From a virus (Duplodnaviria > Caudoviricetes), in the IMG/VR virus record IMGVR_UViG_3300032753_000045, positions 1 to 50,175 of that record: a stretch of DNA of 50,175 bases. The stretch is one strand, 5' to 3'. Positions within the stretch are counted from its first letter, which is position 1, and each line of letters starts with the position of its first letter. The notes under the pieces were generated by a model. The model was not told the DNA's origin. It saw only the letters and a program-made list of their open reading frames with translations, and did not search any database. Shown in pieces: positions 6,676-50,175 of this stretch. The translations under genes were made by a program, and so were the position numbers.

Positions 6676-7157
6676 GCGAAGATATTAATGATGATTGGGA
6701 AGGCACGCCGATTACTAACGCAGAATATAGGCGTATCAGAGAACTTCAAAAACGAGCATTAGAGGATTTGAAAACTTTTGAAGATAAACACCCAGCACCA
6801 ACATCGCAAGGTATTGGCGATGTTAATAGTACTGCTAAAGGTTCTGGCGCTCGCTATAACGATGGCAAACCCAACTTTAGTTTAATTCCATTGGTAACTT
6901 TGGAAGATGAAGCGCGAGTCTGGTCTTACGGCGAACGCAAATACGCTGCATGGAATTGGGCTAAGGGAATGCCTTGGTCAGTACCATTAGCTTGTGCATT
7001 GCGCCATATCTCGGCATGGCAGCGCGGGGAAGAGAACGACGAAGAATCTGGTTTGCCTCATCTTGCTCATGCTATGTGCAATCTGCGTATGTTAATGTTG
7101 TACAGTAAAACGTATCCCGAAGGGGATGATCGACCACCAAAGGAACTAATGCCATGA
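6672..7157 (+). CDS. dATP/dGTP diphosphohydrolase domain protein (DUF5664 type)
   Basis: GARYNDGKP..SLIP...YGERKYAAWNWAKG...LRH...DEESGLPHLAHAMCN signature; probable TTG start 6672 after GGAGG. Confidence 0.85.
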   Translation: MSEDINDDWEGTPITNAEYRRIRELQKRALEDLKTFEDKHPAPTSQGIGDVNSTAKGSGARYNDGKPNFSLIPLVTLEDEARVWSYGERKYAAWNWAKGMPWSVPLACALRHISAWQRGEENDEESGLPHLAHAMCNLRMLMLYSKTYPEGDDRPPKELMP

Positions 7158-7717
7158 GCTATATTTTGTACCCGTTTTTAGTCATTATTAATTTAATTGG
7201 CACTTTGCTAACGTATCCGTTAGCTTTTATCGTTGCTATTTGCTATAGCTATCAAGACGGCTGGTGCAATAACGCCACCGTATGGCAGAACAGCCCGCGT
7301 CTATGGAAGATTTTGTCGTGGTTCCAAGCCCCAGACAATAGCTTAGACGGCGACCAAACATTTCAAGCAAGCCATACCCCTTGCTGGTGGTCTAAAGTCC
7401 AATGGCTATGGCGTAACCCTTTCTATGGGTTTGCTGTCGTGACGTTTGACGGCTCTACTGGCATGTCATATTCAGGGGATCTACATTGCGATGAAAAGAA
7501 CCCGGGGCATATTTTGGTAAAAGGACATGGTTTATTTCAGTGGGTCTATACCAAGCATATTTTTGGTAAGTGTTTATATCTAAACTTTGGCTGGAACATT
7601 CGCGCGTTAGTTGACCCTGCTTTCATAACCCCGGATCAGTGGCATAACAATACCGCTCTGATTGCCAAATATCCTGCTACGTTTGCCTTTAGCCCACGGC
7701 TGGTAAGCTATCAATGA
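7154..7717 (+). CDS. Conserved phage membrane-associated hypothetical protein
   Basis: N-terminal hydrophobic segment; WFQAPDNSLDGD and WLWRNPFYGF motifs. Confidence 0.7.
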   Translation: MSYILYPFLVIINLIGTLLTYPLAFIVAICYSYQDGWCNNATVWQNSPRLWKILSWFQAPDNSLDGDQTFQASHTPCWWSKVQWLWRNPFYGFAVVTFDGSTGMSYSGDLHCDEKNPGHILVKGHGLFQWVYTKHIFGKCLYLNFGWNIRALVDPAFITPDQWHNNTALIAKYPATFAFSPRLVSYQ

Positions 7718-7860
7718 GTGCCAATCTCATCATCCTTACAGGCTTGATTTACGCTTACATTTGCGCGGAACAAGCATGGAAGGGGGATATTGGATTGGCT
7801 TGTATGTATGCGGGGTACGCTTTTGCCAACTATGGAGCGTACTTGCTGGCAACTAGATAA
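7714..7860 (+). CDS. 48-aa two-helix membrane peptide (MSANLIILTGLIYAYICAEQ...)
   Basis: Manual translation; ATGA overlap. Confidence 0.6.
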   Translation: MSANLIILTGLIYAYICAEQAWKGDIGLACMYAGYAFANYGAYLLATR

Positions 7861-7886
7861 TCTTTTATAATTGTTGCATTGCAACA
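7843..7886 (+). promoter_or_regulatory. Sigma70 promoter with an overlapping palindromic operator TGTTGCA-T-TGCAACA
   Basis: TTGCTG(7843)-17 bp-TATAAT(7866); perfect 7-1-7 palindrome at 7872-7886 across the expected start site. Confidence 0.6.
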
Positions 7887-7902
7887 TGAATAGGAGATTG
7901 CT

Positions 7903-8025
7903 ATGTTTGATTTTGAAAAGCCTTACAAGCAGTATGAAGAGTTAATAGAACGCGTTAGACAAGTAAACGAGTTCTGGCTTAATTCGGTGTTTTATTCAAT
8001 TAAAGAATTTTTTAAAATTAAGTGA
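7903..8025 (+). CDS. 40-aa amphipathic helical peptide (MFDFEKPYKQYEELIERVRQVNEFWLNSVFYSIKEFFKIK)
   Basis: AGGAG RBS; has its own promoter and terminator. Confidence 0.7.
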   Translation: MFDFEKPYKQYEELIERVRQVNEFWLNSVFYSIKEFFKIK

Positions 8026-8486
8026 TACCTAAAGGTTGCAATTAGCAACCTTTTTTCATACTTATAGGTATAAAAAGATATACAAATATCGGACAACAAT
8101 GTCTTATTTTTGCATGACTTTTTATTGAAATTTCATGCACTTACAAGCGTTTTTAAAATAGGTCAGCTAACAATAACAAAGTAAATTTTTAGCAAATAAC
8201 AAAGTAATAAAAAGTTTCCCGAACGGGAAGAATTGATAAAAAAATGTGCAAATGTAAAGAAATATTCCCGAACGGGATATTTTGTAAGAAAAAGTTATAA
8301 CATTCACAATGTTAAACACAACAAAAGTATGTTAAATGACTCATTAATAAGGCTTTAAGTTATTTAAGGACTCTTTAATAAGTCAACAAATGTGTAGTTA
8401 GTTACACATTTCATGTACAAAATGTCAACAAAAACGTACATATACCGACAATATGTCTACAAAACTGCAAATTTTGTACTTATAGG
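8025..8486. repeat. Non-coding array of about nine distinct paired or palindromic operator-like motifs
   Basis: For example TTCCCGAACGGGA x2, GACTC(A/T)TTAATAAG x2, AATAACAAAGTAA x2, ATGTC(A/T)ACAAAA x2, TGCATGA-N15-TCATGCA, TAACATT-N3-AATGTTA, AAATGTGTA-N6-TACACATTT; no ORF of 60 aa or more; flanking genes converge. Confidence 0.85.
8031..8056 (+). terminator. Intrinsic terminator
   Basis: AAAGGTTGC-AATTA-GCAACCTTT followed by a T run, just after the stop at 8025. Confidence 0.6.
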
Positions 8487-8899
8487 TTGTAGGTTTTAAT
8501 AGGTTCGTGGCTTTTTAAATCTACATTGCAAGCCCATTTAACTGCTTCCTCAGCCGTTAACCCCATCCGCATACATACTTCGGCAGCCATCGCCCCTGAG
8601 CCGATAGCCATAAAGGTTTTAGCTCTTTCCCATTCCAAATCTTCACCGCAATAAAAAAGACCTTCTTTGGTCAATTTTATAAAAGAACTATCAGGTTTTA
8701 GCTTTGGTTTAACTTTGCTTTTTTTGTTGATGTATTCAACTACTTTTTCGCAATCGCTCCAGTTGCCCGCTACACCTAACCAACCACCATCTATGGATAC
8801 AACTTTTTCATCAAAATACTTAATACCAGTATCTTCATCTGAAAACTGACTGTCTGAAACCAAAACTTTATTAGTCCAATCGCCAACAATAGTAGTCAT
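8480..8899 (-). CDS. Ntn-hydrolase (HslV/proteasome beta-like) peptidase
   Basis: N-terminal MTTIV, then DSQ, GVAG, AIGSGA..A, AEEAV..A...D pattern. Confidence 0.7.
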   Translation of the reverse strand: MTTIVGDWTNKVLVSDSQFSDEDTGIKYFDEKVVSIDGGWLGVAGNWSDCEKVVEYINKKSKVKPKLKPDSSFIKLTKEGLFYCGEDLEWERAKTFMAIGSGAMAAEVCMRMGLTAEEAVKWACNVDLKSHEPIKTYNL

Positions 8900-8901
8900 G
8901 T

Positions 8902-9885
8902 TTACACCTTGTTTATGCAGCCTCTAAACTCAAACTCACCGTTTTGCTCGTCCGATACCATAATTAGTTCTGGCATGAGCATCCTGCCTTGGTCAAAGGA
9001 TAGCATAACGAATCCGGAGCGCCAGTCGAGAGGGTTATCTTCCACATACTCGAAGGTAGGACTCATCGGATCAGCCAAACATCCGGTCTGAACCCCAAAA
9101 AAGTTGCCTTGATAATTTGAAATCGGCTGTACGGCGAGGACATGCGTATGCCCCGTAATGATGTTTGTGTTGCCCGCTGCCAGCAAATTGCTATAACCCG
9201 CCGTGCGTCCACCCTTAAAACGGTGTTTTACAACGGTTTCTTCACCGATCCAAAAGCTCCAACAAGTTTCCCACTCAGGAAAGTGGTATTTCAGGCTAAA
9301 GCCATCTACACCGCTATATTCTGGCACCTTATTAACCAACCATGACTCGTAGCGCATGTCATGGTTTCCTAGCGTCCAAATTAACCGACAGCCGGGAGGT
9401 CTATGTTTAACGATTTCATCAAGGTGATAACGACAATTTTGTAGCTCTTGCAATACCGTGGGCTTGGCATCGTAATTAATCGATGGGAAACGGCTCAAAA
9501 CCTGCCCATCGAAGGCGTCGCCATTGCAGATGATGACCTGTGGCTTAAAGGTGTCAATCATCAACAGGAGGGCTTTAAATGCCGTTGTAGTGGTATCTGT
9601 AAAATGCGCGTCTGAAAACACAATAACGCGCTTTACCTTGTCAACGTCAATGCCTCTTCGGACGTTATGGGCTGCTTGTTCTACTTTTTTGAGTGGGGGC
9701 TTTTTTTCATCCCGTTGAGAATTGCTGGTAGGAAGATCTATCTTGTAGCGAATCTCAAGATTTCGTCGGCGGGTCAAGGCACTTCTAGGGTTTATACCTA
9801 ATTCTTTTCCTACAAGGGTAGGAGAACCTAGTTTTTTCCAAAGTGCAATAAACTCCTCGTCTGAACAAACAGCTTTAAACACCAT
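8902..9885 (-). CDS. Calcineurin-like metallophosphoesterase with N-terminal HTH-like segment
   Basis: SDAH, NGDAFD, LGNHD and GHTH motifs. Confidence 0.88.
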   Translation of the reverse strand: MVFKAVCSDEEFIALWKKLGSPTLVGKELGINPRSALTRRRNLEIRYKIDLPTSNSQRDEKKPPLKKVEQAAHNVRRGIDVDKVKRVIVFSDAHFTDTTTTAFKALLLMIDTFKPQVIICNGDAFDGQVLSRFPSINYDAKPTVLQELQNCRYHLDEIVKHRPPGCRLIWTLGNHDMRYESWLVNKVPEYSGVDGFSLKYHFPEWETCWSFWIGEETVVKHRFKGGRTAGYSNLLAAGNTNIITGHTHVLAVQPISNYQGNFFGVQTGCLADPMSPTFEYVEDNPLDWRSGFVMLSFDQGRMLMPELIMVSDEQNGEFEFRGCINKV

Positions 9886-9901
9886 GTAAAACCCCTATTT
9901 A

Positions 9902-10111
9902 TTAGAATTTACCCGCTATCTTCTTAATCTTTTGTTCCATTTCCCAATCCTCGCGGCATTCTGCGGAGCAAAAACGCCCTTCGGGAATCAATTCATTACA
10001 GCAAAGGCAGTGCCCAGTGTAAGGGTGTTTTTTTTCATTACGAACCGCTTTTATAGCTAATTCACGGTGCAAAGCTTCCATGTCGGACGCTTCGTCAAAA
10101 AAATCGCTCAT
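9902..10111 (-). CDS. TraR/DksA-like C4 zinc-finger protein
   Basis: N-terminal MSDFFDEA (DxxDxA); CLCC...C.AEC. Confidence 0.65.
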   Translation of the reverse strand: MSDFFDEASDMEALHRELAIKAVRNEKKHPYTGHCLCCNELIPEGRFCSAECREDWEMEQKIKKIAGKF

Positions 10112-10557
10112 GCTAAGGTACCACCTACATTTTCATAAAAGGCTTCAAGATGAGCCATTGAATTAGTCCTCTGCCCATAGGGGCTATTAGGCAGACTAGC
10201 CCAAATACGATTGCATCGAATAATAGCATCTTGAAATCTCCCATCATTAATTAACATATCTGCGCCAGTTTCTTTAATCAGTTCTAGCGCAATCATATCT
10301 TGTGCGTGTGGGGAAAAGTCTACGGCGCCTACGCGAGTCTTATAGGCGTCATATATTCGTTCTAATATTTGGTATTTGCCAGCCGCTGTAGAGGTCAAAC
10401 CATTGATGGTGATGTGTTTACGGGGGTGGTCTTTATAGCTTTGAAAAAGTGTTCCGCCATACAGAACATTGTAGCCTTCGTCAGAATGCGCCAATAAATC
10501 TCTGCCAATCTCTGAAAAACCGATGGTTTTAAGCAACGCTATTTCATTGTTGGTCAT
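10108..10557 (-). CDS. Endolysin, lambda R-like lytic transglycosylase
   Basis: SE...GYNVLYGG...HP...STAAGKYQIL...FSP..QD...WASLP. Confidence 0.9.
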   Translation of the reverse strand: MTNNEIALLKTIGFSEIGRDLLAHSDEGYNVLYGGTLFQSYKDHPRKHITINGLTSTAAGKYQILERIYDAYKTRVGAVDFSPHAQDMIALELIKETGADMLINDGRFQDAIIRCNRIWASLPNSPYGQRTNSMAHLEAFYENVGGTLA

Positions 10558-11002
10558 CTGGCAGTCCTAATCTTTCGCGTTCGTATTTTTGCAATAGTTC
10601 ATATTTTAGGGTTACTTCAGCGCATTCTCCAGCAAGTAATGTGTACTTGGTTTCTGCATCAATTCTGAGGGAGGTGGCTGATCCTGATAACAGGGGACTG
10701 GAACTTGGTGAGCGCAACCCGTTAGCATAATAGCGGCGCAAAATGATAGTTTTAGCAGCGAGTTCATCTTGAAGTCCTTTAACAATTAAATCGTGTTGTT
10801 GTTTTTTGGCTTTGTTTTCCGCAAGTTGCTCCTTGACGATTCGCGTTTGCTCTTCTTGGTATCTAAGAAACTTATTATGCTCCCAATGCCAAGGAGTATA
10901 GCCAACGCAAAATAGCACCACAGCAGCCAATCCAATTTCGATGTAGGTGATAACATTACCTGAGAAGAAGCCAATGGCTTTACTGAGAAGAGTTTTCCAC
11001 AT
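10544..11002 (-). CDS. Rz-like inner-membrane spanin
   Basis: N-terminal TM, coiled coil, embedded lipoprotein gene. Confidence 0.8.
   Translation of the reverse strand: MWKTLLSKAIGFFSGNVITYIEIGLAAVVLFCVGYTPWHWEHNKFLRYQEEQTRIVKEQLAENKAKKQQHDLIVKGLQDELAAKTIILRRYYANGLRSPSSSPLLSGSATSLRIDAETKYTLLAGECAEVTLKYELLQKYERERLGLPDDQQ
10612..10767 (-). CDS. Rz1-like outer-membrane lipoprotein spanin, embedded in Rz
   Basis: Manual translation MNSLLKLSFCAAIMLTGC-AHQVPVPCYQDQPPPSELMQKP...; lipobox LTGC; Pro-rich. Confidence 0.8.
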   Translation of the reverse strand: MNSLLKLSFCAAIMLTGCAHQVPVPCYQDQPPPSELMQKPSTHYLLENALK

Positions 11003-11222
11003 TTTTATCTGTCGCTGATTGAGCGCCTACATAAACACCGCTACCGCCAATTAAAGCCCCTAGCCCCATGCCAAAAGCTGAAAAGTCCATTGAGTGATTC
11101 AAAATGGCGTGAATAAAACCAAGAGCAATAAACGATAAAGCCCCTAAAAATAGCGATACGCGACCGACACACCAAGTACGATTATCGTTTTGGGTCAACA
11201 TGTCGACAAAAAACTTTTTCAT
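10980..11222 (-). CDS. Putative holin (2 TM)
   Basis: Two hydrophobic helices; lies in the lysis cassette. Confidence 0.65.
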   Translation of the reverse strand: MKKFFVDMLTQNDNRTWCVGRVSLFLGALSFIALGFIHAILNHSMDFSAFGMGLGALIGGSGVYVGAQSATDKNVENSSQ

Positions 11223-43920: not shown

Positions 43921-44208
43921 ATGATACAAACCGACGATTTTACCCGCGTAAACAATGACTCAAACGGCAATCCGCGTTACGTTTGCCATTTTTTAGCGTT
44001 TACCACAAGCGACGATCTAGCCGATTATTCAGGGCTAGATAGAATTAGCAAAAAATATGAGCTAGCATTAAAACGCGCTAAACCATTGGGCGGGCGCCGT
44101 TTTCATAATAAACAATATGGCGGCGGGATTGTTTTCGGCTCTATTTATAACTTAGGGCAATTATGCGCCGATATCAATTCAATAAGGGGGGTTTTGGAAA
44201 ATGCCTAA
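43921..44208 (+). CDS. Conserved early protein (NDxNGNPRYV family)
   Basis: FTRVNNDSNGNPRYVCHF...GGRRFHNKQYGGGIVF. Confidence 0.8.
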   Translation: MIQTDDFTRVNNDSNGNPRYVCHFLAFTTSDDLADYSGLDRISKKYELALKRAKPLGGRRFHNKQYGGGIVFGSIYNLGQLCADINSIRGVLENA

Positions 44209-49718: not shown

Positions 49719-50175
49719 CTACTTTCCGTAACGCGTCATAATCTTAATCTCCACATCTAAGGGCAAACCCTCACCCCAAGCTGGCGCTGCACGCATAACG
49801 GATTCCATCTCACATTTTACTTCTTCTGGGCGGTCTGTTTCGATGACGATTTCATCATGGACATGCAATACAACGTCATCGAGCTGGCGTAAAGAATTAC
49901 GCAAAATATCATTAGCAACCGCTTGAGTAATGTTTTCACAAGCTAGACCTTTCCACAACCTAGCCCTAGCCCATTCGGTAGCCATCGCAGCGGGTTTCCA
50001 CGCAGCTTTGGCGTAAGATATCCCCTCCTCATCTAAGCGGGCATAGGGATAGCATAACACGCGCCCGCTCGGAAGTGCATACCAAAGATGCTGCGTATCA
50101 TACAAATACGTTACGCGACCCGCGCTAAATTCATAGCCCGGATTACGCATCGCTCTGGTATAGGCTGACTCAAGT
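49719..50175 (-). CDS. polA: Family A DNA polymerase, C-terminal part
   Basis: LPSGR.L.YP, ENITQAVA.D, LHVHDEI (motif C). Confidence 0.92.
   Translation of the reverse strand, partial: LESAYTRAMRNPGYEFSAGRVTYLYDTQHLWYALPSGRVLCYPYARLDEEGISYAKAAWKPAAMATEWARARLWKGLACENITQAVANDILRNSLRQLDDVVLHVHDEIVIETDRPEEVKCEMESVMRAAPAWGEGLPLDVEIKIMTRYGK
50007..50175. repeat. Terminal direct repeat, right copy
   Basis: Matches 1-169. Confidence 0.95.

Follow-up and report, generated by a model that had tools for sequence, protein, structure and literature searches.

Candidate mimics of host toxin-antitoxin operators arrayed in a gene-free spacer of a phage genome

Why should a phage pack nine different groups of paired, operator-like repeats into a short spacer where two operons converge and no gene lies downstream? 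We addressed this question on IMGVR_UViG_3300032753_000045, the genome of a freshwater phage (Caudoviricetes). This IMG/VR entry comprises 50,175 nt (completeness estimate 100%); it was analysed over its full length and is called the window below. The spacer (8026-8479) is 454 nt long, gene-free and 27.5% GC, and lies within the longest AT-rich tract of the genome. It is bordered on the left by the stop of a 40-aa open reading frame (ORF) on the + strand (7903-8025) and on the right by the stop of an HslV-like gene on the - strand (8480-8899). A preliminary description had listed nine motif groups at 8025-8486, three pairs with a spacing of 31-33 bp and the ends of both flanking genes. All nine groups were indeed found at their positions, the spacings of groups 1, 7 and 9 were 33, 31 and 31 bp, and the two genes do stop at the spacer, at 8025 and 8480. 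Judging from their sequence, we regard it as fairly secure that sites of the spacer are mimics of host operators.

Host counterparts of the spacer sites

The hosts used for comparison were Burkholderiales-type or betaproteobacterial genomes and bacterial-type metagenome contigs, which may not be the phage's own host. It had been proposed that the modules would match betaproteobacterial DNA upstream of helix-turn-helix (HTH) antitoxin or similar regulator genes. Such loci were found for four of the groups, and not for the other five. Group 7, the E-type pair, consists of two 18-bp near-palindromes (8337-8354 and 8368-8385) 31 bp apart. Its exact 21-mer core had no match in 185,579 species genomes, indicating that there are no prophage copies and that no recent verbatim capture took place. 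A relaxed E-pair pattern matched 24 genome loci, most of them unrelated tandem repeats. At six betaproteobacterial loci (L232, L235, L236, L243, L246 and L248), near-perfect 18-bp palindromes with the E sequence were located in intergenic DNA, 30-31 bp apart, as in the phage. Beside these host sites lay genes for XRE HTH proteins of 106-113 aa (Pfam HTH_31 in L235, L243 and L248), followed by a HipA kinase gene in L232 and L248 (Pfam). When five host genomes were scanned, E matches with 0-2 mismatches were found at the hipBA-type locus, with the exception of one two-mismatch site on another contig of genome G006; genome G008 contained two further sites with three mismatches. A matrix built from host E sites only ranked the phage sites at 8337 and 8368 first and second in the 50 kb, with 21.3 and 16.2 bits, the next best site reaching 7.6. 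The E pair as a putative mimic of the paired operators of HipB-like XRE regulators of hipBA loci is well supported by these matches.

The D-type pair (group 5) is made of two 16-bp palindromes (8215-8230 and 8264-8279) 49 bp apart. A search for this palindrome in the five host genomes revealed a pair with the same 49-bp spacing in G009, directly upstream of a gene for an 86-aa HTH protein and a HipA-N-domain gene. The HTH protein belongs to the Y4mF antitoxin family (TIGR03070, 85.4 bits for a cut-off of 71.65). D sites 49-50 bp apart beside Y4mF HTH and HipA-N-domain genes were present in L249, L251, L252, L253, L258, L262 and L274. With a host-only D matrix, the phage sites at 8215 and 8264 ranked first and second in the 50 kb (23.3 and 19.2 bits), far above the third, and both fell inside the range obtained for host sites by leave-one-out (11.8-28.4 bits). 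A D or E pair at the host spacing appeared in none of 200 AT-rich null sequences of 50 kb. The gene context and these scores give good support to the D pair as a likely mimic of the operator of a Y4mF-family (HipB-type) antitoxin.

Two further groups have candidate counterparts. The B-type inverted repeat (group 3, 8111-8139) has 7-bp arms and a 15-bp spacer. In both G006 and G008, identical arms with a 15-bp spacer were located between the -10 hexamer and the start codon of a DUF6088 gene; the two encoded proteins are 63% identical. A scan of 121 genomes for the B palindrome gave nine matches, of which eight were unrelated chance palindromes and only that of G006 adjoined a DUF6088 gene. We consider it moderately supported that B may be a copy of the operator of a DUF6088 locus. 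Beside the DUF6088 gene of G006, a second small regulator gene (L263, 848-1408, - strand) encodes an AbiEi_4 antitoxin domain (25.9 bits for a cut-off of 25), suggesting that the locus is part of an island of the abortive-infection type. The p-type pair (group 1) consists of two 14-bp near-palindromes (8025-8038 and 8058-8071) 33 bp apart, and a third, partial copy (8477-8489) lies at the right edge of the spacer, overlapping the stop of the HslV-like gene. Of the 79 loci returned by a metagenome scan for p pairs, most were hairpins or tandem repeats unrelated to p, and only L274 was informative, a bacterial-type contig of 47 kb that carries tricarballylate genes. There, two copies of the p palindrome stand 33 bp apart, ending 6 nt before an HTH gene for "mobile mystery protein A" (TIGR02612, above cut-off). 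This single locus suggests that the p pair may be a copy of the operator preceding the mobile mystery protein A gene. At 1.7 kb from that gene, the same contig carries a Y4mF antitoxin/HipA pair preceded by three D-type sites (island 8889-11200), so that one bacterium can own at least two of the loci whose operators the array matches.

The proposed mimics are not accompanied by the genes that such operators serve in bacteria. The claim that the phage lacks a matching set of regulators held in the window, in 223 further viral loci and in small ORFs: no homologue of the cognate HTH, HipA, HipS-like or DUF6088 proteins was detected in the window and these loci, and no Pfam HTH domain in 20 small ORFs. 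The D and E sites are not in the promoter of a cognate HTH/toxin operon in the phage, there being no such gene and both neighbours ending at the spacer. This argues for mimics rather than for working operators of a phage toxin-antitoxin locus.

The other groups are as follows. Group 2 (8077-8103), the left part of module B, comprises two adjacent palindromes of 12-14 bp that are conserved in relatives. Module C (group 4) is an exact 13-nt direct repeat on the + strand (8172-8184 and 8195-8207) with a spacing of 23 bp, deleted in the related locus L004. The group 6 inverted repeat (8298-8314) was kept only in the nearest relatives, L002 and L084, as judged with nhmmer, and is possibly due to chance. 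Module G (group 8, 8388-8411) is an inverted repeat with 9-bp arms and a 6-nt spacer, kept in close relatives, and module F (group 9) is a 17-nt direct repeat on the + strand (8417-8433 and 8448-8464) with a spacing of 31 bp. An intrinsic terminator on the + strand (8031-8056; 9-bp stem, 5-nt loop, T run) is overlapped by the first p site and ends the + strand operon of the replication module; in L004 its stem shows a compensatory change from G-C to C-G in both arms. A 16-nt direct repeat (8054-8069 and 8472-8487, 14 of 16 positions identical), formed by p-type copies at both ends, brackets nearly the whole array and could favour its loss or exchange by recombination.

The density of repeats was compared with 200 dinucleotide shuffles of the spacer. 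Three 13-mer direct repeats with at most one mismatch within 60 nt were observed for 0.10 expected, a number reached by none of the shuffles, and ten inverted repeats of 9 with at most one mismatch for 2.5 expected (1 of 200 shuffles). With 12-mers and two mismatches, the six repeats observed for 3.1 expected were not significant (18 of 200 shuffles). The repeat density thus exceeds that of shuffled AT-rich DNA at strict settings and not at looser ones, and the excess is real but moderate on chance statistics alone. No recurrence of the spacer motifs was found elsewhere in the 50-kb genome.

A mosaic of modules across related phages

Two protein-anchored scans provided 140 related viral loci. 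As the preliminary description had predicted, these relatives differ by the gain, loss and reordering of whole modules. The junction downstream of the HslV-like gene ranged from about 30 nt to several hundred nt, and the modules of the window's spacer occurred independently of one another, as units of 50-100 nt. Their limits in the window are 8071-8169 for B, 8171-8208 for C, 8209-8295 for D, 8329-8385 for E, 8384-8416 for G and 8404-8479 for F. Rearranged examples include L083, where F precedes E, L003, where E stands almost alone, and L044, with B alone. In exact-pattern scans, 39 viral contigs contained the E core and 31 the B core; the flanking genes of many of them were unrelated and lay in every orientation. 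The order that recurred among relatives was B, D, E, phage-specific direct repeats and then one or two p palindromes. Direct repeats downstream of the E pair were seen in many relatives (L145, L147, L151 and L176; L143, L163 and L172), and in the window module F takes the place of these iteron-like repeats. In all six complete genomes the array was a single locus, and each of them carried one or two p copies.

The sites themselves and their spacing were well conserved. Both arms of the B inverted repeat were intact in seven of nine aligned relatives. Of the distinct phage pairs, 19 of 20 kept the D spacing of 49 bp and 32 of 33 the E spacing of 31 bp, and in these variants the D and E sites were more conserved than the DNA between them. 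Conservation of the array also extends across phages that have little else in common. G004 and the window share almost no proteins, yet the array is common to both; nucleotide similarity is confined to the HslV-like gene (76%) and to 181 nt of the D-E stretch (73%). Between the E module of G004 and its counterparts in G001, G002 and G005, identity is 92-94%, and between the D modules of G004 and G005 it is 85%. In G004 the array is located 6.5 kb from the HslV-like gene; a helicase/Prim-Pol operon follows closely, with a helicase gene about 60 nt downstream of the array. About 200 nt from this array, Rfam identified a Betaproteobacteria-1 RNA (RF02932, 90.7 bits for a gathering score of 49.4; L205, 4369-4494, - strand), a hint of a betaproteobacterial host and of non-coding RNA cargo in the variable region.

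The protein gene shared most widely by phages with little else in common was that of the HslV-like protein (N-terminal Thr motif; phrog_1040), together with a metallophosphoesterase neighbour (window 8480-9885, - strand). The HslV-like protein is 79-96% identical at the amino acid level in G001-G005, and its gene adjoins the array in five of the six complete genomes. One may speculate that this mimic of a protease subunit is functionally linked to an array of antitoxin operators.

The spacer separates two parts of the phage genome. The two record ends cut through the DNA polymerase gene (1-1659 and 49719-50175), indicating that the map is circular or permuted and was opened inside this gene. 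Around position 1, both strands carry replication genes (polymerase, exonuclease, VRR-NUC, SNF2 helicase, primase and methyltransferase), and the + strand block continues up to 8025 with a dGTP diphosphohydrolase-like gene, a DUF7338 gene and two tiny ORFs. The late genes occupy the - strand and extend from the terminase, at about 41.8 kb, through the lysis genes and the metallophosphoesterase gene to the HslV-like gene. No tRNA or tmRNA was detected in the window. A search of cultured-phage DNA with positions 7000-9500 gave no match, and searches with the terminase and HslV-like proteins returned distant relatives only, with no close cultured relative. A small early ORF (43921-44208) matches Pfam Phage_TreK, a family of terminal-repeat-encoded proteins of Staphylococcus phages (E 1e-17).

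Proposed function and competing explanations

The identity and spacing of the sites, their conservation, their turnover as modules, the single-copy state of the array and the missing cognate genes are observations. From the identity of the sites we infer binding of host proteins, their titration and a benefit to the phage. The phage has neither cognate HTH/toxin genes nor a gene downstream of the array, which points to host antitoxin dimers as the most likely ligands; these dimers, alone or with their toxin, would bind the array sites. As the phage replicates, the number of sites would rise above the one or few operator sets of the host, and the array would become a sponge. Toxin-antitoxin complexes might then be kept assembled on phage DNA, or else repressor might be drawn off the chromosomal operator, so that more antitoxin would be made. 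Either course would delay toxin release and abortive infection. According to an excerpt of PMC8262856, hipBA operators are bound by HipB within the inactive HipA-HipB complex, and loss of HipB frees the kinase; a sponge driven by copy number would on these grounds be the most economical function. We give an even chance to this reading, that of a non-coding spacer made up of arrayed operator mimics, which likely acts as a sponge for host antitoxin/toxin complexes during phage replication. Slightly short of even, in our estimate, is the broader possibility that freshwater betaproteobacterial phages carry an evolvable modular sponge, each module of 50-100 bp imitating the operator of one host toxin-antitoxin or abortive-infection locus and sequestering its antitoxin-toxin complex, and the content of the array tracking the defence repertoire of the host in an arms race.

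Several results weigh against the sponge. The idea that the modules are captured operators fits groups 1, 3, 5 and 7, which match host loci; five groups are without a counterpart, and two of the four matches come from few loci, two host loci for B and the single contig L274 for p. No host counterpart was found for groups 2, 4, 6, 8 and 9, the searches covering only F, G and the second palindrome of group 2: the module G palindrome had no match in five host genomes, the module F pair none in five genomes and none in 101 genomes, and the second group 2 palindrome had only one-mismatch matches in five genomes. The strict p pair was absent from 151 Burkholderiales genomes, and single-site matches to the 16-mer and 14-mer p palindromes in five host genomes were no more frequent than in the control. 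Among 301 Burkholderiales genomes, 26 showed the D-pair pattern, frequently with two or three sites spaced by 49-50 bp, but a backwards control of D had a match in about 18 genomes, so that the case for D rests on gene context and not on counts. Y4mF and HipA-N-domain genes were present at 5 of the 12 D loci examined, the rest being GC-rich chance matches or loci without the Y4mF gene. The second E site of the phage, at 16.2 bits, falls below the leave-one-out range of host E sites (17.3-30.9 bits). The captured-operator idea is further weakened by the partial coincidence of group 1 with the terminator, and at the first D site a scan called a - strand terminator (8229-8216) that might serve the late operon, with a conserved A run; the two terminators explain part of groups 1 and 5 only. 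In relatives, the repeats beside E consist of 3-4 copies of an 11-13-nt unit at 21-22 bp, or of three copies of about 20 nt. A regulatory role of the array is possible in G004, given the helicase/Prim-Pol operon downstream. Finally, in the excerpt of PMC8262856 a part played by Hip kinases in phage defence is given as a hypothesis only.

The phage might use sites for host repressors in its own regulation, as roadblocks, as helpers of terminators, or as the gate of a promoter or small RNA that senses the toxin-antitoxin state of the host. The array is always found where one transcription unit borders on another, the two converging in the window, G001-G003 and G005 and diverging in G004, L145 and L147; besides the terminator in the first D site and the helicase operon of G004, the E pair of L152 stands 43 nt upstream of a gene. 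In the window, however, neither strand has a gene downstream of the array, and no sigma-70-like promoter (-35/-10, spacing 16-18 bp) was found in 7600-8900, for 4.5 expected from shuffles. Moreover, a separate good terminator already closes the + strand operon, and Rfam 15 gave no match at gathering score in the window (in 7850-8600, at E up to 10, sub-threshold noise only). We consider this use unlikely. If instead the spacer encoded small proteins or structured small RNAs, the palindromes would be RNA stems. The foldability of both strands does exceed that of shuffles (z -3.9 and -4.2), short ORFs (30-50 aa, starting at codons other than ATG) are present, and a relative has the known RNA motif beside its array. 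Nevertheless, none of the six frames is open in more than 3 of the 37 distinct E copies; the D and F copies are open in several frames at once and thus give no frame signal, and B is too conserved to tell. The changes in the E and B arms are not compensatory, as judged by eye, Rfam is again silent, and the identical sites in hosts are promoter DNA upstream of genes. Coding or RNA function therefore appears very improbable.

An origin of replication or another essential cis site, whose repeats would bind an initiator and host architectural proteins near an AT-rich unwinding region, would account for a single copy per genome, for the location in the tract richest in AT, for the neighbouring replication genes of the window and G004, for the three to four direct repeats at 21-22 bp in relatives, and for a change in the sign of the GC skew at the spacer. 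That skew switch coincides with the switch of gene strand, and the window has only different families of two copies, with no run of at least three identical iterons. In addition, module content varies widely among close relatives, some of which have junctions of about 30 nt (in one of these, G004, with records L059/L061, the array lies at another place in the genome). The same repeat type is present in G003 and G004, yet the two have no replication protein in common (blastp, E 1e-5 or better), and four modules are explained by host toxin-antitoxin operators. An origin is in our view quite improbable. We attach similarly little weight to neutral leftovers, either promoter scraps of lost toxin-antitoxin cassettes or short shared linkers for recombination between genome modules. 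In favour of these, toxin-antitoxin loci are mobile too, and the modules form a mosaic and lie at module borders. Against this, sites and spacing were kept in 19 of 20 and 32 of 33 variants while the spacers drifted, E is 92-94% identical between phages that otherwise share almost nothing, no HTH or toxin coding remnant was seen in 224 viral sequences, and several different operators are gathered at one place. Other candidates were discarded: an attP site was ruled out by the lack of an unassigned ORF of integrase size and of a bacterial copy, a cos or pac site by the distance of 32 kb to the terminase genes, and a resemblance of E to T7-type promoters was dropped as no phage RNA polymerase gene was seen.

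Each matched module names a candidate binding protein, so that the sponge hypothesis is directly testable. If it holds, phage non-coding DNA would reveal host defence loci (two hipBA/hipBST families, the mobile mystery protein and DUF6088), and counter-defence DNA of this kind would be invisible to gene-based annotation. Should the modular sponge be real, modules F, G and C and the triple repeats of relatives would be operators of unrecognised defence loci, and the gene of the HslV-like protease subunit may belong to the same toolkit against toxin-antitoxin systems. Even if there were no sponge, unrelated phages share single-copy arrays of host-operator sequences that are conserved better than their genes, and this calls for an explanation.

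Comparison with known systems

A full-text literature search, judged from titles and the openings of abstracts, returned no description of such arrays. The nearest bacterial counterparts are hipBA and hipBST promoters, which, in the excerpt of PMC8262856, carry several palindromes per promoter for a Cro-like HTH dimer that autoregulates the kinase-toxin operon. The D and E pairs of the phage match host sites of this kind in sequence and in spacing. The phage, however, has no hipB, hipS, hipA or downstream gene, and its sites share an array with the operators of other loci. The consensus of the E. coli hip operator is a different sequence from the phage sites.

Single-copy, AT-rich and repeat-rich loci near replication genes are typical of iteron-type origins (lambda, P1 and plasmids); the window differs from these in having no run of identical iterons, in a content that varies among close relatives and in four modules that match host operators. 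Mobile regulatory cassettes of the T4 type, promoter-early stem-loops repeated many times per genome upstream of genes, are likewise short conserved intergenic modules common to divergent phages and shuffled as a mosaic. In contrast to them, the present array occurs once per genome, has no promoter match and shows identity to host operators. Sequestration of a DNA-binding protein is the function of E. coli datA, which titrates DnaA, and of the iteron or incompatibility loci of plasmids, clusters of sites with no gene to regulate that act in a copy-number-dependent manner. Whereas these bind one protein of the circuit of their own replicon, the array collects sites for several unrelated host regulators.

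To our knowledge, the phage answers to toxin-antitoxin defence known so far are proteins or RNAs that imitate antitoxins, or protease inhibitors. The Dmd protein of T4 and the pseudo-ToxI RNA repeats of a Pectobacterium phage mimic the antitoxin itself. Like them, the array would counter abortive infection with a stand-in for a toxin-antitoxin component. Unlike them, it would do so with double-stranded DNA that mimics the operator, addressing several systems side by side; if this is true, double-stranded DNA that imitates several host operators simultaneously would represent a counter-defence of a new class.

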